From contig JAOACU010000001.1 in assembly GCA_026417715.1 (NCBI GenBank), positions 1 to 34,372 of the forward strand: DNA of 34,372 bases, in the 5' to 3' direction. Numbering within the stretch: position 1 is the first letter of the stretch; each line of letters opens with the position of its first letter. The DNA is from Anaerolineae bacterium. Its GTDB lineage: Bacteria; Chloroflexota; Anaerolineae; UBA4142. Positions 4,304 through 32,464 of the stretch are shown one piece after another. The notes below the pieces were generated by a model, which was given only the letters and a program-made list of their open reading frames with translations, was not told where the DNA came from and did no database searches. The position numbers and the translations under genes were made by a program.

Positions 4304-4396
4304 CACTCTTGGAGAGAAAGAGGTTTCTAGACCTCACAGGTCTCGGAGACCTGTGAGGTCTGAACAAGCCCATTTACCGTTTTCTACCCATGAGTG
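4304..4396 (+). repeat. MITE/REP-like element, family 1 copy A (imperfect terminal inverted repeats plus a central 16-bp-arm palindrome)
   Basis: The core tttctagacctcacaggtctcggagacctgtgaggtctgaacaagcc(c)atttaccgttttctaccca is almost identical, bar a single 1-nt indel, to 32327-32394. The ends cactcttggagagaaa and tttctacccatgagtg are imperfect inverted repeats. Confidence 0.7.
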
Positions 4397-4400
4397 GTCG

Positions 4401-5486
4401 TTAAATTTTCACAATCGGTTCTTTACTCGCCTGACTCAACACTTCAACACCGTTATCGCGAATCACCACCAAGTCTTCGATGCGTACACCACCCCAGCCC
4501 GGAATGTAAATGCCCGGCTCGATGGTCAACGTCATTCCGTCGCGATACACATCCTTGCTCAACTTGCTAGCGCGCGGACCTTCGTGCACAGCAAGACCAA
4601 CGCCGTGCCCCAAGCCGTGTCCAAACGGCTCGAACTCGCTCTTGGCGATGACGTTACGCGCGAACGCATCGGCACGCTTGCCTTTGACGCCGGCGCGAAT
4701 TTTCTTTTCGGCGTGTTCCTGCGCTTTGAGCACCGTGTTGTACACTTTCAAAAACTGATGATCGGCGGGTTCGCCCAAACAAATCGTACGGGTCAAATCG
4801 GAGTGATAACGCTGGATGCGGCAGCCGATGTCCACGACAATGGGTTCACCGCGCTGAATCACGCGATCACCGGGAATTGCATGCGGTAGCGCGCCGTTGG
4901 GTCCCGATGCAACGATGAGATCGAAGGCGACTTTGTCTGCGCCGTTCTCGCGCATAAATTTTTCGATGATCCACGCGGCTTGTTTTTCAGTCATTCCGGG
5001 TCTGACCGTAGCGCAAAAATGTGCAAATGCGCGATCGGTCAATTCGACCGCGCGCTTGATCAGTTCGAGTTCGCCGGGTTCTTTGACGATGCGCAACTCT
5101 TCGACCAAGCCCTTGGTGGGTACGAGTTTGAACCCTACTTTGCGCGCGACTTTACTCCACTCTTTGAGCGTGGCGACTGTCAGATGCGTCGCTTCAAAAC
5201 CCATCGTCTTGGGTTTGACTTCAGCGGCAAAATCGGCGAGCGGTTTGTTGCGATCGTACCCCGACTCGAGCAACTTGAATTCAGGCGCGCGTAGTTTCAC
5301 ATCTTCATAGTATCGCGAATCGGTAGCGATCCATGCTTGCTCTGCGGAAAGTAACAGTGTGGCGTCCAGATACTCGCCGCCTGAAAATCCAGAGAGATAG
5401 TATTGATTTTCGGGACGAGTGATAAGTAAGGCGTCAAGTCCTTGTGCAGACATTTTGGCGCGTAAGGCGTTGACGCGTTGGTTCAT
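4401..5486 (-). CDS. Xaa-Pro aminopeptidase/dipeptidase, M24B family
   Basis: Creatinase-like N-domain plus M24 pita-bread domain, with metal ligands in context (DIGC..YHSDLTRT, HGLGHGVGL..HE, IEPG, RIED). I chose the start ATG 5484-5486 (MNQRVNALR) with GGAG 5 nt upstream. The upstream 62 codons of the tracked ORF are only a translation of a heptamer array. Confidence 0.9.
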   Translation of the reverse strand: MNQRVNALRAKMSAQGLDALLITRPENQYYLSGFSGGEYLDATLLLSAEQAWIATDSRYYEDVKLRAPEFKLLESGYDRNKPLADFAAEVKPKTMGFEATHLTVATLKEWSKVARKVGFKLVPTKGLVEELRIVKEPGELELIKRAVELTDRAFAHFCATVRPGMTEKQAAWIIEKFMRENGADKVAFDLIVASGPNGALPHAIPGDRVIQRGEPIVVDIGCRIQRYHSDLTRTICLGEPADHQFLKVYNTVLKAQEHAEKKIRAGVKGKRADAFARNVIAKSEFEPFGHGLGHGVGLAVHEGPRASKLSKDVYRDGMTLTIEPGIYIPGWGGVRIEDLVVIRDNGVEVLSQASKEPIVKI

Positions 5487-28178: not shown

Positions 28179-28272
28179 TTTTGTCTCCTCCTTACTAAAC
28201 CAAATACCCCAACTCGCGGTGCTTGTTCGCGATTATAGCATTCATTCGTGACATTGGCAAGCGGGGATCGCT

Positions 28273-28419
28273 CAATGAGCCAATTGCCCAATTGACCAAT
28301 GAGCCAAAAGGACGAAGAACGAAAGACGGAGGACGAAAAGATTTGGCTCATTGGCTCATTGGTTCATTGGCTCATTGACTCATTGGTTCATTGGCTCATT
28401 GATTCATTGGCTCATTGAC
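28273..28419. repeat. composite array: CAATGAGC x4, then GGACGAA x4, then GCTCATTG x~9 (outer arrays inverted)
   Basis: caatgagc caattgcc caattgac caatgagc, then aaaaggacgaagaacgaaagacggaggacgaaaag, then ggctcattg gctcattg gttcattg gctcattg actcattg gttcattg gctcattg attcattg gctcattg. Confidence 0.9.
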
Positions 28420-30393
28420 GAACTGCCGTTCGTACAACTGCCGATACAAGCCGCCCAGCGCGAGCAACTCGTCGTGCGTGCCGCGCTCGACGATGCGCCC
28501 GTCGTTCACGACGCAAATCAAATCCGCATTCCGAATCGTCGAGAGACGATGCGCGATCACGATGGCGGTGCGCCCAACGAGTAAACGCGCGAGTGCGTCT
28601 TGAATCAGTACTTCGGTCAGCGTGTCCACGCTCGCGGTCGCTTCGTCGAGAATCAGGATGCGCGGATTCGCGAGTACCGCGCGCGCGATGCAAATCAACT
28701 GTCGCTGTCCCACTGAAAGATTCACACCGCCTTCGAGGATTTCGGTGTCGTAGCCAGCGGGGAGCGCGGCGATAAAGTCGTGCGCGTTGGCAAGGCGCGC
28801 CGCGTCTTCGATTTCGCGTGGTGTAGCGTCGGGATGCCCAAAGCGAATGTTGTCAGCAATCGTTCCTGCGAACAGGAACGGTTCTTGCGGCACGATGCCC
28901 GTTTGTCGTCGCAGTGAGCGTTGTGTGACCGCGCGCACATCGTAGCCGTCAATCAACACTGCGCCCGCGCTCACATCGTACAGACGCGCGATGAGATTGG
29001 CGATGGACGTTTTGCCCGCGCCAGTGGGACCGACGAGCGCGATGGTTTGACCGGGTTCGATGACGAGATTCACGTCGCGCAAGACGTAATTTGGAGCCAC
29101 AGGGGACACAGAGGACACAGAGAATTTTTCCTCTGTGTTTTCTGTGGCAGAACGGGGATACGCGAACGACACGTCGCGCAGGACGTAATTTGAAACCACA
29201 GGGGACACAGAGGGCGCAGGAGAAATTCTTTTCTCTGTGTTCCCTGTGTCCTCTGTGGCAAACTTGCGATACGCGAACGATACATTCCGCAATTCGATGC
29301 GTCCGACGATGGGCGGCATTTCGATTGCATCGCGCGCGTCGCGCACATCGGGTTGCGTATCGAGCAATTCCAACACGCGCTCGCCGCCTGCCATCGCGGC
29401 TTGCATCGTCGTGTAAAGTTGACTCAACTCTTGAATCGGCTGAAAGAATCGCGTGACGTACGCGAGGAACGCAACGACCACCCCGAGCGTGATTTCCTCG
29501 CCAATCACTGCGAGACCACCGAACCACAAGACGATGCCCGTCGCCAGCATTCCCAAAAATTCGACCGTCGGCAAAAAGATGAACGAGAGCGTCATCGCCG
29601 CAACGTGCGCGTCACGATTCGCGCGATTCACCTCGTCGAAATGTTCTTGCGACGATTCCTCTTGCGCGAACGCTTGAATCACGCGCATCCCACTGATATT
29701 CTCGGCGAGATCGCCAACAACTGCCGCGATGCGCGCACGCGTCTCGCGAAACGCCACTTGGGCTTGACGCGCAAAGAGCCACGTGGCTAGCACCATCAAC
29801 GGTAGAACGCAAAACGTGATGAGTGCGAGGCGCGGACTCATCGAGAGCATCACCGCGACGATACCAACGAGCACGACCGCGTCACCCGCAAACGTCACCA
29901 CGCCTTGCGACAAGAGATCGTTGATGACGGAAACATCGTTGATGACGCGTGAAATCGTCACGCCGACGATGTGTGTATCGTGATAACCGAGCGGGAGGGT
30001 TTGTAGATGCCGAAACAGTTGCGCGCGCAAAGTTGCTAGAACTTGCTGACCGACCCACGCAAGGATGTATTGCAACAACGCCGTCGTTGCGTAGATCGCG
30101 AGGAAAACACCTGCGAGTGCAAGCGCAACGCGCGCGAGTCCTGCCGCATCGCCGCGCGCAATGTGCTCGTCAATCGCGACCTTGATGAGGTACGGCGCGC
30201 TGAGCGTCAACGCCGATGAAATCAGCACGAGCGCGATCGCGAGCGTCATCTTGCGCCAATGCGGACGCAAGTACGTGAGTAACCGCGCGACGATGCGCGG
30301 ATCGAACGAATGTGCTTCTTTGTGTTGTCCAAAATCTTCCAAAGCACTGCGCGGTCCCATTCCCGCGCTGGCTGCACCGATGGAGATGGTCAT
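28396..30393 (-). CDS. ABC exporter, fused permease/ATPase (MsbA/MdlB-like half transporter), carrying an in-frame repeat insertion in the NBD
   Basis: A six-helix TMD is followed by an NBD with GPTGAGKTS, LSVGQRQL and ILILDEATASVD. The insertion lies between the VSFAY (A-loop) and VLRDV segments. Confidence 0.9.
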   Translation of the reverse strand: MTISIGAASAGMGPRSALEDFGQHKEAHSFDPRIVARLLTYLRPHWRKMTLAIALVLISSALTLSAPYLIKVAIDEHIARGDAAGLARVALALAGVFLAIYATTALLQYILAWVGQQVLATLRAQLFRHLQTLPLGYHDTHIVGVTISRVINDVSVINDLLSQGVVTFAGDAVVLVGIVAVMLSMSPRLALITFCVLPLMVLATWLFARQAQVAFRETRARIAAVVGDLAENISGMRVIQAFAQEESSQEHFDEVNRANRDAHVAAMTLSFIFLPTVEFLGMLATGIVLWFGGLAVIGEEITLGVVVAFLAYVTRFFQPIQELSQLYTTMQAAMAGGERVLELLDTQPDVRDARDAIEMPPIVGRIELRNVSFAYRKFATEDTGNTEKRISPAPSVSPVVSNYVLRDVSFAYPRSATENTEEKFSVSSVSPVAPNYVLRDVNLVIEPGQTIALVGPTGAGKTSIANLIARLYDVSAGAVLIDGYDVRAVTQRSLRRQTGIVPQEPFLFAGTIADNIRFGHPDATPREIEDAARLANAHDFIAALPAGYDTEILEGGVNLSVGQRQLICIARAVLANPRILILDEATASVDTLTEVLIQDALARLLVGRTAIVIAHRLSTIRNADLICVVNDGRIVERGTHDELLALGGLYRQLYERQFVNEPMNQ
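29071..29280. repeat. tandem duplication (99 bp + 111 bp) of a palindromic CCACAG(A/G)GGACACAGAG element with flanking host codons, in frame within the ABC gene
   Basis: Both units begin cacgtcgcgcaRgacgtaattt and end ..tacgcgaacga. Each has a central inverted repeat, for example cacagaggacacagag-aatttttc-ctctgtgttttctgtgg. Both unit lengths are multiples of 3. Confidence 0.85.
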
Positions 30394-30477
30394 AGAGATT
30401 GGAGATTAGAGATTAGTGATTGGTGATTAGGTGATTGGGTGATTGGGTGATTGGGTGATTCGTCCTTCGTCTTTCCG
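30394..30477. repeat. tandem 7/8-mer array GATTRGW to GATTGGGT, followed by CGTCCTT-type units
   Basis: gattgga gattaga gattagt gattggt gattaggt gattgggt x3, then gattcgtccttcgtctttccg. It spans the gap between the two ABC exporter genes and contains the TAA stop of the upstream one. Confidence 0.9.
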
Positions 30478-32262
30478 TAATTGCTGGTGGTAAATCTCCG
30501 CGTACAACCCGGACGTGCGGAGGAGTTCGTCGTGGGTGCCGCGCGCGGCGATGCGTCCCTTTTCCAACACCAAAATCAAATCTGCCATTCGCAATGTCGC
30601 GAGTCGCTGGGCGATGACGAACGACGTACGCCCGCGCATCAATTGCTCCAGCGCGAGTTGAATCAGTCGTTCGGTTTCCGTGTCCACGCTCGATGTTGCG
30701 TCGTCGAGAATCAAAATGCGCGGGTTCTTGAGCAGGGCGCGCGCAATCGCGATGCGCTGGCGTTGTCCGCCCGACAGCGTGATGCCGCGTTCGCCGACGA
30801 GCGTGTCGTAGCCGTGCGGTGTTTGCATAATGAAATCGTGCGCTTGTGCCGCGCGCGCGGCGGCGATGATTTCGTCTTCACTCGCGTCAGGACGACCAAA
30901 GGCAATGTTCTCGCGAATCGTCGTCGCAAAGAGCATCGTCTCTTGCAAAACGATACCGATTTGATCGCGCAATGAGTTGAGTGTGACACGCCGAATGTCG
31001 TACCCGTCAATCGTGATGCGTCCCAAAGTCACGTCGTAGAAACGCGGAATCAGGTTGATGATGGTGGACTTGCCCGAGCCCGTCATTCCCAACAATGCGA
31101 CGACTTGACCGGGTTTTGCCTCGAACGTGATGTTGTCCAAAACGCGGTGGCGTCCAAAGTAGGCAAACGAGACGTTCTCGAATCGCACGTGCCCTTGAAT
31201 CGGCGGCAAGGGCATCGCGTCGGGCGCGTCGCGCACTTCGGATTCGGCGTCGAGGATTTCAAAGATGCGTGTGCCTGCTGCCGAGGCGATCGCCAGCGCA
31301 GGTACGATTTGTCCCAAGCGGCGCACGGGTTGCGCCAACTGCGCGAGGTACGTCGTGAACGACACGAGTTCGCCGAGTGTGAGTTGTTGTTGCATTACCA
31401 GCCAGCCGCCATACCAAACGATGACGACGGTGCTCAGGTTCGCGATAAAGTTGATGAGTGGTTCGTTGAGCGCTTGCACGCGCGCGGCGCGCATCGAAAG
31501 ATCGAACCAGCGCGCGTTCTCGCGTTCAAAGCGCGCGATCTCGGCATCTTCTTGCGCAAACGCTTTGACGACGCGCGCGCCACGCAAGTTTTGTTCCAGT
31601 CGCGTCGTCAGCACAGCGAGTTGTTGTTGCACGGCAAGCGACAGCGGACGCAAGTACCGCGCCATATGAAACGCGCGATGCGCAAGAAATGGTAGTGTTG
31701 CCAGCGCAAGGAGCGCAAGCGACGGATTCATCCAAACGAGCATCACCGCGCTACCGATCATCAAGACGATGCCATCGGTTAGGCGCAAGAACGCGCGTCC
31801 CGTGACGAATCGGACACGATCCACGTCTTGAATCGCGCGCGACAAGATTTGTCCTGTCTCGGTCCGATCGTGGTACGAAAAAGAAAGTGTTGCAAGTTTG
31901 TGATAAATCGCGTTCCGCAAATCGTACGCGACGTTTTGCGATGCCTGTTCCGACCAACGTCCTTCAAAGAATCGTAGGATACCTTTGAGGAGGGTGAGTC
32001 CCAAGAGCGCAAGAACCGAGGTGAGAAGTAACTGTGTGTCCTTGTCGCCGATGCCGTGATCTACAATCCAGCGGATGAATTGTGGGATGGTGAGCGCGAG
32101 CGCGTTGATGCCGACGAGCGCGAGATACGCGCCCAGGGTCATTTTCCAGTACGGGCGTAAGTAGCCCGCGCAACGCCACAGCACGCGCAGTGAGTTGGGT
32201 GTGGGAAGCGGCGCAGGCGCCGGCGTCGCGCGTGCGCGCGTCATTGGAATTGAGTTTTGCAT
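30427..32262 (-). CDS. ABC exporter, fused permease/ATPase (partner half transporter)
   Basis: A TMD is followed by an NBD with GMTGSGKST, LSGGQRQR and ILILDDATSSVD. The A-loop region VSFAYFGRHRVLDN is uninterrupted. The last ~15 codons (KDEGRITQSPNHPIT) are encoded by the repeat array. Confidence 0.9.
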   Translation of the reverse strand: MQNSIPMTRARATPAPAPLPTPNSLRVLWRCAGYLRPYWKMTLGAYLALVGINALALTIPQFIRWIVDHGIGDKDTQLLLTSVLALLGLTLLKGILRFFEGRWSEQASQNVAYDLRNAIYHKLATLSFSYHDRTETGQILSRAIQDVDRVRFVTGRAFLRLTDGIVLMIGSAVMLVWMNPSLALLALATLPFLAHRAFHMARYLRPLSLAVQQQLAVLTTRLEQNLRGARVVKAFAQEDAEIARFERENARWFDLSMRAARVQALNEPLINFIANLSTVVIVWYGGWLVMQQQLTLGELVSFTTYLAQLAQPVRRLGQIVPALAIASAAGTRIFEILDAESEVRDAPDAMPLPPIQGHVRFENVSFAYFGRHRVLDNITFEAKPGQVVALLGMTGSGKSTIINLIPRFYDVTLGRITIDGYDIRRVTLNSLRDQIGIVLQETMLFATTIRENIAFGRPDASEDEIIAAARAAQAHDFIMQTPHGYDTLVGERGITLSGGQRQRIAIARALLKNPRILILDDATSSVDTETERLIQLALEQLMRGRTSFVIAQRLATLRMADLILVLEKGRIAARGTHDELLRTSGLYAEIYHQQLRKDEGRITQSPNHPIT

Positions 32263-32308: not shown

Positions 32309-32398
32309 GCTCTTGGGTAGAAAGGGGTTTCTAGACCTCACAGGTCTCGGAGACCTGTGAGGTCTGAACAAGCCATTTACCGTTTTCTACCCAAGAGC
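32309..32398 (+). repeat. MITE/REP-like element, family 1 copy B, with 15-bp perfect terminal inverted repeats
   Basis: The terminal inverted repeats are gctcttgggtagaaa and tttctacccaagagc. The central palindrome is agacctcacaggtctc-g-gagacctgtgaggtct. The core matches 4322-4390. Confidence 0.78.
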
Positions 32399-32464
32399 GA
32401 TTTGATAAAAGGTCACAGCAGCAGAGTGTCACCGACTTAAATCGGGAAGCGATCAAAAATTAGT

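Follow-up and report, generated by a model that had tools for sequence, protein, structure and literature searches.

Probable in-frame insertion and tandem duplication of a palindromic repeat beside the A-loop of an ABC exporter from Anaerolineae

Introduction

How did two copies of a palindromic DNA repeat come to lie within the ATP-binding domain of an ABC exporter, directly beside its nucleotide pocket, and does the exporter still work? The question arises from a 34,372-nucleotide stretch of an Anaerolineae contig, analysed here as a whole and referred to as the window. One half-transporter gene of the window reads, on the minus (coding) strand, VSFAY-RKFATEDTGNTEKRISPAPSVSPVVSNY-VLRD-VSFAY-PRSATENTEEKFSVSSVSPVAPNY-VLRDVNL, and its neighbour reads VSFAYFGRHRVLDN across the equivalent segment. 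An initial annotation of this DNA proposed that a palindrome of the dispersed repeat type had inserted in frame and had then been tandemly duplicated, and compared the event with the palindromic elements of Rickettsia (RPEs). In-frame palindromic RPE insertions in functional Rickettsia genes were reportedly described by Ogata et al. in 2000 and 2002. We consider it likely that the locus records a real, tolerated, RPE-like in-frame insertion in one ancestor, followed by tandem duplication through slippage in the lineage of the contig.

Results

Host gene and its partner

The insert-bearing gene (28396..30393, minus strand) encodes an ABC exporter half-transporter of 665 residues, with ABC_membrane at residues 50-319 and ABC_tran at 438-587. 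Adjacent to it is the gene of a 611-residue partner half-transporter (30427..32262, minus strand), which was confirmed to read VSFAYFGRHRVLDN without an insert. Both genes carry ABC_membrane and ABC_tran, and their synteny is kept in relatives. The translation of the insert-bearing gene contains Walker A, Q-loop, signature, Walker B, D-loop and H-loop, with ILILDE as Walker B, AHRL as H-loop and a deviant signature, LSVGQ. The nucleotide-binding domain (NBD) of the partner is degenerate, with ILILDD as Walker B, AQRL as H-loop and the canonical signature LSGGQ.

The heterodimeric exporter TM287/288 has one degenerate ATP site, and the meaning of its Walker B and H-loop motifs has been established (PMC5216877). 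TM287/288, TmrAB and BmrCD are likewise encoded by two adjacent half-transporter genes and have one degenerate site (PMC5216877). The pattern that separates TM288 from TM287 (PMC5216877) recurs here: Walker B Glu and H-loop His are found in this gene, and Asp and Gln in the partner, which is why we assign the consensus-site subunit to the gene at 28396..30393. The best structural matches of its AlphaFold2 (AF2) model are TmrA and TM288, and its best HMMER matches among solved exporters agree, so that the gene product is predicted from its sequence to be the TM288/TmrA-like subunit of a heterodimeric type IV (ABCB-like) exporter. None of the solved relatives (TM287/288, TmrAB, BmrCD) has an insertion past the A-loop tyrosine. 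Compared with them, the consensus-site NBD here carries 56 additional residues, including a second A-loop motif.

Architecture of the insert

In the NBD, the insert follows the A-loop tyrosine, Y375, and precedes strand beta2. The site spans 61 residues, against five in orthologues, so the large gain that had been put at about 60 residues measures 56. Two diverged direct-repeat units stand in tandem, one of 111 nt (unit A) and one of 99 nt (unit B), both divisible by three, and the sequence confirms that both are in frame and free of stop codons, with the lengths first given. In codon register the feature occupies 29074-29283; the interval 29071-29280, under which it was annotated, denotes the same feature shifted by 3 nt. 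Unit A, first in the protein (29173..29283, minus strand), encodes V371-D407 as VSFAY RKFA TEDTGNTEKRISPAPSVSPV VSNYVLRD and includes the A-loop Tyr375 (29269-29271, minus strand). Unit B, second in the protein (29074..29172, minus strand), encodes V408-D440 as VSFAY PRSA TENTEEKFSVSSVSPV APNYVLRD and includes a redundant Tyr412 (29158-29160, minus strand).

Each unit contains an inverted repeat, as annotated, with imperfect arms at 29196-29219/29235-29258 in unit A and at 29096-29115/29129-29148 in unit B. Hairpin A (29196..29259, no strand assigned) is built of three plus three heptamers with a 9-nt period (left CACAGAG/CACAGGG/CACAGAG, right TCCTGCG/CTCTGTG/CCCTGTG), and hairpin B (29096..29148, no strand assigned) of two plus three (left CACAGAA/CACAGAG, right CTCTGTG/CTCTGTG/CCCTGTG). 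Both fold stably as RNA (-38.0 kcal/mol, z -5.4, for A; -28.1 kcal/mol, z -7.4, for B), and folded jointly they reach -82.4 kcal/mol (z -9.9). The motif CCACAGRGGACACAGAG, with up to three mismatches, has six matches in the window, all of them at the insert site, where shuffles give an expectation of 0.05. From 29071 to 29280 the minus strand is open in each of its three frames, and no stop occurs in any of the six frames of either hairpin.

Consequences for the protein

Modelling of the NBD, suggested at the outset, predicts the insert as a disordered loop. The AF2 model has two confident strands here, at residues 366-374 and 436-445, which take up the first VSFAY and the last YVLRD; between them pLDDT falls below 50 at residues 378-433. 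Residues 376 and 436 are exactly where HMMER alignments to solved exporters break: the alignment to ABCB19 stops at 376, just past the tyrosine of unit A, and the second HMMER domain begins at 436, where the YVLRD of unit B would start the real beta2. According to the model, then, the first VSFAY (Y375) would be the A-loop at the end of beta1 and the last YVLRDVNL would be beta2. The second VSFAY would fall within a disordered loop of about 59 residues (377-435) next to the adenine pocket of the sole hydrolysis-competent ATP site. The model is biased in its choice of Y375, as the alignment puts orthologues on the first VSFAY, and a single-sequence AF2 run of the NBD was uninformative (mean pLDDT 37.5). 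We take the beta1-beta2 turn to be surface-exposed from the known NBD fold, and not from inspection of the model.

Against ten relatives, dN/dS is 0.04-0.12 for the gene and 0.04-0.12 for the NBD alone, and the terminal branch of the contig's gene is not lengthened in the gene tree. Because the gene is under strong purifying selection and its ATPase motifs are intact, the exporter is apparently still functional and the insert tolerated.

The inserted peptide itself has no recognisable kin. An HMMER scan of residues 377-435 against 1.84 billion cluster representatives gave no homologue at E <= 0.001, and a 41-residue artificial consensus of the insert peptide gave 116 word candidates and no match. 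The peptide is therefore not a protein family, and how often in-frame copies occur is a matter that peptide searches leave unaddressed. Substitutions in the insert have no bias to third codon positions, and a compensated +1/-1 frameshift over the hairpin loop separates unit A of the window (KRISP) from its counterpart in lineage P0002 (EKNFS). We infer that the nucleotide hairpin is conserved and the peptide unconstrained, and that the insert is not a protein module.

Alleles among orthologues

About 90 of 106 scorable orthologues (~85%), including every outgroup in the tree, have a loop of five residues at this site (RGEDY and similar). Since this is both the majority and the outgroup state, the orthologue alignment supports the reading of the long segment as an insertion, and not as an ancestral loop, as the initial annotation had it. 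One intact hairpin is present at the same site in four lineages (P0002, P0010, P0012 and P0013), the P0010 allele was found again in two independent JGI metagenome contigs, and three lineages (P0004, P0005 and P0011) have decayed remnants without hairpin potential (z ~0). P0010, P0012 and P0013 correspond to the metagenome-assembled genomes GCA_016865935.1, GCA_020723345.1 and GCA_040753115.1, and the habitats of P0002 and P0003 to the read sets SRR27730032 and SRR27730025.

The hairpin may be more than a neutral passenger in these genes. Its arms are 81-94% identical between lineages, and in the eleven most diverged lineage pairs arms are 81-93% identical where four-fold sites are 57-65% identical (Fisher p 1e-5 to 2e-2), figures to be read with the inflation that hand alignment of repeated heptamers brings and with the non-independence of lineage pairs. 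Heptamers are exact in 19 of 32 cases and have at most one mismatch in 30 of 32, and strongly stable hairpins are predicted by RNA folding in five lineages (z -3.8 to -7.4). Changes fall at all codon positions, and the compensated frameshift alters the peptide and leaves the DNA unaltered. Recent recombination or co-transfer was considered as the cause of this conservation and rejected, the insert-adjacent flanks being no more alike than the remaining gene. Arm identity above that of four-fold sites and the 19 exact heptamers count against a purely neutral passenger, and it is possible, if on balance doubtful, that selection or active maintenance keeps the hairpin. The route might be a structure in the mRNA or the DNA (one that pauses translation between beta1 and beta2, or that acts as a processing or stability element), a site for a protein that binds CACAGAG nonamers, or gene conversion from other hairpin copies. 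However, P0004, P0005 and P0011 lost the hairpin yet kept the gene, and most orthologues never had it, from which it would appear dispensable; nor do ~115 kb of orthologous loci hold a nearby donor copy for gene conversion. Maintenance is compatible with the insertion and duplication history that we favour, and would alter only the reason why the hairpin persists.

The distribution of alleles is patchy. The tree puts the empty alleles P0003 and P0006 within the clade of filled ones (bootstrap 99 and 89), and over flanks of +/-60 nt the filled allele of P0002 is closer to the empty allele of P0003 (92-93%) than to other filled alleles, a pattern explained neither by plain vertical inheritance nor by ordinary recombination over long tracts. 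The nesting of empty among filled alleles and the flanks of P0002 would fit repeated independent insertions at one codon position. Such a hot spot could have been targeted by way of a GAGGAC microhomology that links the hairpin unit to the empty site. The first E-D pair in the hairpin arm is encoded by the same gag gac as in the empty site, and the hairpin family also occurs in frame in unrelated genes elsewhere. We nevertheless think such recurrence unlikely. All filled alleles have the junctions ..t tct GCC / GGC tcc aaa t tac, identical outside the palindrome (tct... / ...tccaaat) in a stretch that is not in the family consensus of other genomes. Derived heptamer variants are also held in common: outer-right CCCTGTG by units A and B of the window, P0012 and P0010, and mid-left CACAGGG by unit A, P0002 and P0013. 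In ~150 kb from the contig's lineage there are no donor copies. The common junctions and variant heptamers argue for a single origin of the filled alleles. No direct repeat of target bases was found at the insert junctions, and the element has taken the place of the ancestral ggc gag gac or has absorbed it.

The tandem duplication

Among the collections searched, every relative has at most one unit, and the duplication is found in this contig only. Because the host codons NYVLRD and VSFAY accompany the hairpin in the second unit, and relatives have one unit at most, the proposal that this unit arose by tandem duplication, A-loop tyrosine included, is supported at the level of sequence. A short direct repeat is present at all three boundaries. 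Its upstream copy (29281..29292, minus strand) reads ttgcggaatgta on the coding strand (L-R-N-V); at the duplication junction (29170..29181, minus strand) ctgcgcgacgtg (LRDV) is followed immediately by tcgttcgcgtat (SFAY); and the downstream copy (29071..29082, minus strand) reads ttgcgcgacgtg (L-R-D-V), then NLVIEPGQ and Walker A. In relatives the bounding copies are TTGCGCAATGTG and TTGCGCGATGTG, 11/12 identical. Outside the duplicated host bases, about 13 substitutions separate units A and B, as do a 3-nt indel in the loop and a single 9-nt unit.

The duplication rests on one assembly, from a metagenome-assembled genome, and the exact protein is one member on one contig. A look-up of the exact protein for independent evidence of the duplication returned nothing on record, no other protein among the best 120 homologues exceeds 635 residues, and a degenerate pattern of the YVLRDVSFAY junction had no match in JGI metagenomes. 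An assembly artefact might therefore be suspected, in which two single-hairpin strain alleles were joined into a chimera and the real gene has a single insert. Besides the single occurrence in the collections searched and the metagenomic source, it would fit the identity between the units, which is 75% over the insert and reaches up to 86% with hairpins of distant relatives, as expected of two strains. Several details make this explanation improbable. The junction cgcgacgtg/tcgttcgcgtat requires k-mers that are absent from any single-insert allele, and the longest exact repeat common to the two units, 18 nt, is shorter than usual assembly k-mers. Among the loci read, both units have tac gtc, found elsewhere only in P0011, and cgc gac, found elsewhere only in P0010. 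Only 3 of 36 duplicated host bases differ, and the frame is exactly preserved.

The reading of the long segment as a lineage-specific loop of ancestral age, or as pseudogene sequence in decay, is highly improbable and already contradicted: the beta1-beta2 loop does vary in length, with variants of 11-12 residues in several lineages (RRPSAEGGEDD, RQRSSSEGDNEY), but all outgroups and most orthologues have five residues, the segment is a strong nucleotide palindrome of the same type as repeats in unrelated phyla, and the low dN/dS and intact motifs do not suit a pseudogene.

The hairpin in other genomes

An exact two-arm pattern matches at least 120 genomic stretches in many bacterial phyla and in archaea, which bears out the original suspicion that the palindrome is of the dispersed repeat type. 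Several genomes gave two or three contigs with the hairpin among the matches listed, and the carriers include the complete isolate genomes of Sorangium cellulosum So ce26 and Alcanivorax jadensis T9. Of the 123 listed copies, 81 are clearly intergenic; true in-frame copies were found elsewhere in PurL (locus L106) and in a GyrB intein (L126). The hairpin is 53-64 nt long at the ABC site, and the median of the 123 listed copies is 57 nt. Neither the rest of the 34-kb window nor ~115 kb of orthologous loci contains a further copy, and no donor was seen there.

Rfam searches at the ABC site gave no family match, only sub-threshold matches to miRNA-like hairpins, and at gathering score 18 hairpin-bearing loci gave nothing except two unrelated Acido-Lenti-1 matches. 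The literature searched yielded no description of the hairpin sequence in a prokaryotic context. The CACAGAG-heptamer hairpin thus apparently represents a widespread dispersed family without a name.

Discussion

Proposed history of the locus

In the history that we favour, a hairpin repeat of about 55-65 nt would have entered the codons of the beta1-beta2 turn, directly past the A-loop tyrosine, in a single event in the ancestor of a subgroup of Anaerolineae-type exporters. The ancestral G-E-D codons would have been displaced by the element or taken up into it, with a gain of about 23-29 residues. The insertion may have been tolerated because its length is a multiple of three, because the nonamer array is stop-free in six frames, and because the turn is short, variable in length and taken to lie at the surface. 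In the contig's lineage, a block of about 100 nt between near-identical short direct repeats (TTGCGSRAYGTR, LR(N/D)V) would then have been duplicated in tandem, likely by slipped-strand mispairing or unequal exchange and probably aided by fork stalling at the hairpin. This would have copied the hairpin together with NYVLRD and VSFAY, and the copies would have diverged afterwards. The six-frame openness was also considered as a sign of design and rejected as such: 41% of random cyclic 9-mers have the same property, which is thus a precondition for tolerance and not evidence of adaptation.

Comparison with known repeat elements

The passages on RPEs in two published accounts (PMC10969869, PMC3733652) describe palindromes of ~100-150 bp that are confined to Rickettsia, with relatives in Wolbachia, each family having a conserved peptide. 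Against these descriptions, the likeness lies in a palindrome that sits in frame in a functional gene, in a surface loop compatible with the fold, with the host gene under selection; the insertion here is of that fold-compatible kind, with units that are multiples of three, dN/dS of 0.04-0.12 and a predicted disordered loop between confident strands. The same descriptions set RPEs apart from a hairpin of ~55-65 nt that is made of 9-nt units and is spread over many phyla and archaea. At 53-64 nt the hairpin falls short of the RPE length they give, and its peptide is unconserved, tolerates a frameshift and is without homologues. The RPE parallel drawn in the initial annotation is therefore a fair comparison for the mode of insertion (in frame, tolerated, in a surface loop), and the element itself, judged by its length, peptide and distribution, is not an RPE.

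REPs tagged with GTAG/CGTC are mostly intergenic stem-loops, a minority of which lie wholly inside ORFs of known proteins (Di Nocera et al. 2013, PMC3733652). Such intragenic REPs, as single units or as dimers, which are common, encode ~20-30 residues, for which a place in flexible loops or linkers has been proposed (PMC3733652). The hairpin here is similarly a short stem-loop, mostly intergenic and in a minority of cases within genes. It differs from REPs in lacking the tag: within 10 nt of the arms, GTAG occurs in 1 and GACG in 3 of the 123 listed copies, and neither at the ABC site. Its arms are periodic heptamer arrays and not a unique stem, and what looks like a dimer is a direct tandem duplication with host codons in it, where a REP pair would stand head to head. 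Neither a RAYT tyrosine-transposase family nor any other recurrent transposase-like family was found beside hairpin copies when 1638 ORFs from 120 loci were clustered, over a span of +/-4 kb that would miss a single RAYT per genome.

Bacterial MITEs (ERIC/RU, BOX, Correia/NEMIS) are small non-autonomous elements of 70-300 bp with terminal inverted repeats and target-site duplications, and can form in-frame fusions with host ORFs (PMC10969869, PMC2759123). The hairpin resembles them as a small repeat in frame in a host ORF. It differs from them in having no target-site duplication (the G-E-D codons are replaced), in being one hairpin of less than 70 nt over its whole extent, and in having no known parent IS.

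What the locus offers

The exporter provides a natural experiment, with close relatives that have zero, one, decayed or two hairpin copies at the same codon, at a site that adjoins the adenine-stacking tyrosine of what would be the only hydrolytic ATP site of a heterodimeric ABC exporter. How long an extra loop the A-loop turn can tolerate, which of the duplicated A-loop motifs serves, and why the hairpin is conserved at the DNA level without conservation of the peptide are questions that the locus makes testable. In-frame entry of palindromic repeats into essential domains, which is established for Rickettsia, would extend to free-living Chloroflexi, and the same hairpin family is in frame also in Verrucomicrobia and archaea. 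A very widely distributed repeat family is thereby flagged for which no name, Rfam model or paper was found in the databases and literature searched.

More speculatively, the hairpins could belong to an undescribed family of periodic palindromes in bacteria and archaea, whose stop-free design lets it colonise coding regions (the ABC NBD, a PurL linker, a GyrB intein) and which is then actively maintained at the nucleotide level, without neutral decay, through selection on RNA or DNA structure, a heptamer-binding protein or self-templated repair. We give this broader proposal only a modest chance of being right; if it were, the ABC-exporter copies would be the first orthologous series in which the hairpin is maintained inside a gene across lineages near synonymous saturation.

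Two further attributes of the hairpin were considered and rejected. Its contexts (19 convergent, 37 tandem and 10 divergent) amount to only a weak bias with respect to a terminator-like position. As to a viral origin, 11 viral contigs match a loose pattern, and the CACAGAG-type hairpin is clear in two of them, as three nested copies in L004 and a single copy in L002.

Two in-frame hairpin units in an ABC exporter gene

All 34,372 nt of the window form one complete contig in a MAG labelled 'Anaerolineae bacterium'. The gene at 28396..30393 (minus strand) encodes an ABC exporter half-transporter of 665 aa (ABC_membrane, residues 50-319; ABC_tran, residues 438-587), and the gene for its partner half-transporter of 611 aa lies directly upstream (30427..32262). 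Residues 371-443 of the 665-aa protein read VSFAY-RKFATEDTGNTEKRISPAPSVSPVVSNY-VLRD-VSFAY-PRSATENTEEKFSVSSVSPVAPNY-VLRDVNL. DNA-level repeat comparison resolves two direct-repeat units on the minus strand, unit A of 111 nt (29173-29283) and unit B of 99 nt (29074-29172; both in codon register), each containing an imperfect inverted repeat built of CACAGAG heptamers at 9-nt spacing. Across the whole window the hairpin motif has six matches, all at the exporter site, against 0.05 expected by chance, and the two hairpins fold as RNA at -38.0 and -28.1 kcal/mol (z -5.4 and -7.4 versus dinucleotide shuffles). Because repeat units, heptamer palindromes, motif excess and folding were all seen, the initial annotation, which described two in-frame units of 111 and 99 nt with inverted repeats and a duplicated VSFAY, was correct on every point.

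A second periodic hairpin occupies the 3′ end of the same gene (28272-28418). On the coding strand it comprises about nine tandem 8-nt units (CAATGAGC), a T/C-rich loop and an inverted arm, and it encodes the final seven exporter residues, VNEPMNQ, and the TGA stop codon (28396-28398). The repeat is also found at the orthologous gene end in five fetched loci (L012, L017, L018, L019 and L141), and in L019 a repeat of this type additionally ends the upstream ABC gene.

Insertion into an ancestral short turn

Among the top 120 homologues (67-100% identity), 106 were scorable at the insert site, and 90 of these carry a 5-residue turn (RGEDY, RGEEY, RGDER or similar). The short turn is present in every outgroup of a neighbour-joining tree of 588 ungapped columns and is therefore ancestral, which upholds the proposal that the hairpin was inserted. 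One intact hairpin sits at exactly the same site in four lineages (homologues P0002, P0010, P0012 and P0013), and three others (P0004, P0005 and P0011) keep remnants in the same length class that have lost the ability to fold (z ~0). The P0010 allele recurs base for base in two independent JGI metagenome contigs, so the filled state, a gene copy with the hairpin insert, is seen in more than one assembly. A search of 1.84 billion cluster representatives with residues 377-435 gave no match at E <= 0.001; the segment is therefore not a protein module.

Other variants of the site were also observed. Turns of 11-12 residues (RRPSAEGGEDD, RQRSSSEGDNEY and similar) occur in different parts of the tree, in P0014 (L140), P0020, P0029, P0094 and P0097, and could be traces left by older insertions, or else the product of an independent indel; the P0014 DNA (tct gca gaa ggc ggc gag gat) resembles the left junction of filled alleles joined to the ancestral GED. 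The P0010 allele (L016 7200-7330; L143, L144) keeps both outer arms of the hairpin, but in place of the loop it has an unrelated segment of ~33 nt (gcaagaatgtcatttcgagcggagcgagaaatc), possibly a nested insertion there.

Beyond the palindrome itself, the junction sequence is common to all filled alleles (..t tct GCC / GGC tcc aaa t tac), and these flanks are absent from the family consensus in other genomes. Two heptamer variants, CCCTGTG at the outer-right position in both window hairpins (WIN-A and WIN-B), P0012 and P0010, and CACAGGG at the middle-left position in WIN-A, P0002 and P0013, are derived and shared among filled alleles. Together with the common junctions, they point to a single ancestral insertion at the exporter site. 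In the gene tree, a 99% clade of filled alleles takes in an empty group (P0003/P0006) that nests with filled P0002, and over the 60 nt on each side of the site P0002 shares 92-93% identity with empty P0003 versus 73-85% with other filled alleles. This patchy distribution must involve allelic replacement over very short tracts, or else gain or loss specific to the site. The ancestral gag gac (E-D of RGEDY) matches exactly the opening E-D codons of the hairpin left arm (29260-29268, compared with L014 and L016), and the P0010 allele equals an empty allele plus 9 nt (tct gcc aca) before GAGGAC and ~66 nt after it. This identity may reflect target microhomology or coincidence, and may be relevant to the patchy distribution.

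Tandem duplication within the lineage

Two units are found in this contig only, the longest other protein among the top 120 homologues being at most 635 aa. The second unit repeats the host codons NYVLRD and VSFAY, and it therefore arose, as initially described, by tandem duplication that included host sequence and not by a second insertion. That the duplication is an assembly chimera is unlikely, given that single-unit alleles contain none of the k-mers that span the junction and exact matches between the units reach 18 nt at most. A short direct repeat is present at all three boundaries (ttgcggaatgta, ctgcgcgacgtg and ttgcgcgacgtg), and relatives carry two flanking copies, TTGCGCAATGTG and TTGCGCGATGTG, identical at 11 of 12 positions. 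Slippage or unequal exchange between these bounding repeats is the expected route to the tandem units, plausibly with help from the hairpin. The duplicated host bases differ at 3/36 positions, and the variants tac gtc and cgc gac, rare among relatives, are common to both units; the duplication was therefore within this lineage and not very recent. The hairpin parts diverged faster (a 9-nt unit, a 3-nt loop indel and ~13 substitutions), leaving the inserts 75% identical, no closer to each other than to the hairpins of distant relatives.

Conservation of DNA over peptide

Hairpin arms are 81-93% identical where four-fold degenerate sites are only 57-65% identical (Fisher p 1e-5 to 2e-2), as measured by hand alignment of repeated units over lineage pairs that are not independent. 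Heptamers are exact in 19/32 cases, and 30/32 have at most one mismatch. Changes in the hairpin are spread over all codon positions (D/N/S, E/G, T/P/A), and WIN-A and P0002 differ by a compensated +1/-1 frameshift that converts EKNFS to KRISP in nearly identical DNA. Similarity is not raised in the flanks adjacent to the insert. Either the hairpin is selected or maintained at the nucleotide level where it is kept, or the hand alignment and the non-independent pairs make the effect look too large; it is not essential, because three lineages have let it decay.

Position beside the ATP site

By sequence and by predicted fold, the window exporter best matches TmrA and TM288. It has the Walker B motif ILILDE with the catalytic Glu, the H-loop AHRL with its His and a deviant signature, LSVGQ; the partner has ILILDD, AQRL and the canonical LSGGQ. 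With the motifs split in this way between the two subunits, the insert lies beside the A-loop of the sole site competent for hydrolysis. Purifying selection on the gene is strong (dN/dS 0.04-0.12 against ten relatives, with the same result for the nucleotide-binding domain alone), and its branch is not lengthened in the gene tree.

An AlphaFold2 model built with a 73-sequence alignment places beta1 at residues 366-374 (first VSFAY) and beta2 at 436-445 (last YVLRDVNL), with residues 378-433 as a low-confidence, unstructured loop. With beta1 on the first VSFAY, the model predicts Y375 as the A-loop tyrosine, an assignment biased by the alignment; in principle, beta1 could instead be formed by a hybrid strand, YVLRDVSFAY(412). 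HMMER alignments to solved exporters stop at residue 376 and resume at 436, and a single-sequence AlphaFold2 control gave a mean pLDDT of 37.5, too low to inform the choice. To the initial annotation's question of which VSFAY serves as the A-loop, the model thus answers with the first copy, while leaning on its alignment.

A dispersed hairpin family

An exact two-arm pattern (CACAGAGGACACAGAG, 3-33 nt, CTCTGTG) matches at least 120 stretches in a collection of species-representative genomes. The suggestion that the palindrome is a dispersed element therefore stands for other genomes, and not for the window, where no copy lies elsewhere. Bacterial hosts among the matches listed include Acidobacteriota, Chloroflexota, Planctomycetota, Verrucomicrobiota, several proteobacterial classes, Desulfobacterota, Myxococcota, Bacteroidota, Firmicutes, Chlamydiae, Gemmatimonadota and Omnitrophota, and archaeal hosts include Methanosarcinales (with Ca. 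Methanoperedens), Methanobacteriota and Nanohalarchaeota. Also listed are the complete Sorangium cellulosum So ce26 chromosome, the isolate Alcanivorax jadensis T9, and 2-3 contigs each from several genomes.

The 123 copies listed share the architecture xCCACAGAG-NN-CACAGAG...loop...CTCTGTG-NN-CTCTGTGGx (median length 57 nt); the palindrome often extends into variable flanks, the first two flank pairs being complementary in 68-73% of these copies. Most are intergenic (81/123), and two are clearly in frame within real genes: one in an Opitutaceae MAG (L106, around 6873), in the FGAM synthase (PurL) linker that precedes the GATase_5 domain, the other inside the GyrB intein of the archaeon Ca. 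Methanoperedens (L126, around 2350). The nonamer array has no stop in any of the six frames, so the hairpin can sit in open reading frames; we rejected design as an explanation, since 41% of random 9-mers have the same property.

A viral contig (L004, IMGVR_UViG_3300035183_001452) carries three CACAGAG hairpins (680-820, 1710-1860 and 5230-5360), each nested in an outer palindrome of a different 9-nt unit (GACGCAAAG), and the word variants CGCAGAG, CACGGAG and CACGAAG lie beside hairpin copies in other loci. These related words suggest a superfamily of nonamer-periodic hairpins. In a betaproteobacterial MAG (L033, around 407), one arm continues as a long tandem array, (CTCTGTGAT)n, which shows 9-nt units expanding by slippage and fits the difference in unit number between hairpins A and B.

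Relation to known palindromic elements

In-frame palindromic repeats within functional genes are established for Rickettsia palindromic elements (RPEs; PMC10969869), and a minority of GTAG/CGTC repetitive extragenic palindromes (REPs) in several species are also in frame in genes (PMC3733652); such copies are thought to occupy loops or linkers (PMC10969869, PMC3733652). The exporter hairpin works alike, in frame in a functional gene, and the parallel with RPEs drawn in the initial annotation is apt for the mode of insertion, the hairpin itself lying outside that family: it is too short and lacks a conserved peptide. Membership of the tagged REPs was rejected for want of a GTAG/CGTC tag, and MITE membership because the hairpin is shorter than 70 nt and has no target-site duplication. 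The GTAG/CGTC tags, which define two REP superfamilies (PMC3733652), are not a feature of the family: of 123 copies, 1 has GTAG and 3 have GACG within 10 nt of the arms. No Rfam family matches the hairpin, no recurrent transposase-like gene was found within about 4 kb on either side of the hairpins in 120 loci, and our literature search found no prokaryotic description of its sequence. That the family is an undescribed cross-domain element, actively maintained inside genes, is a tentative reading that we consider less likely than not. The exporter case is of interest because the hairpin sits beside a catalytic motif at the active ATP site, because that motif was later duplicated, and because relatives show a graded allele series.

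The window also contains a nested palindromic element of ~88 nt, absent from all related loci fetched, in two copies ~95% identical (4308-4396 and 32309-32399), the latter ~50 nt upstream of the ABC operon start (32262). Its core is a perfect 16+1+16 palindrome (AGACCTCACAGGTCTC g GAGACCTGTGAGGTCT), and the two copies show that at least one further dispersed repeat of palindromic type is present in the genome.
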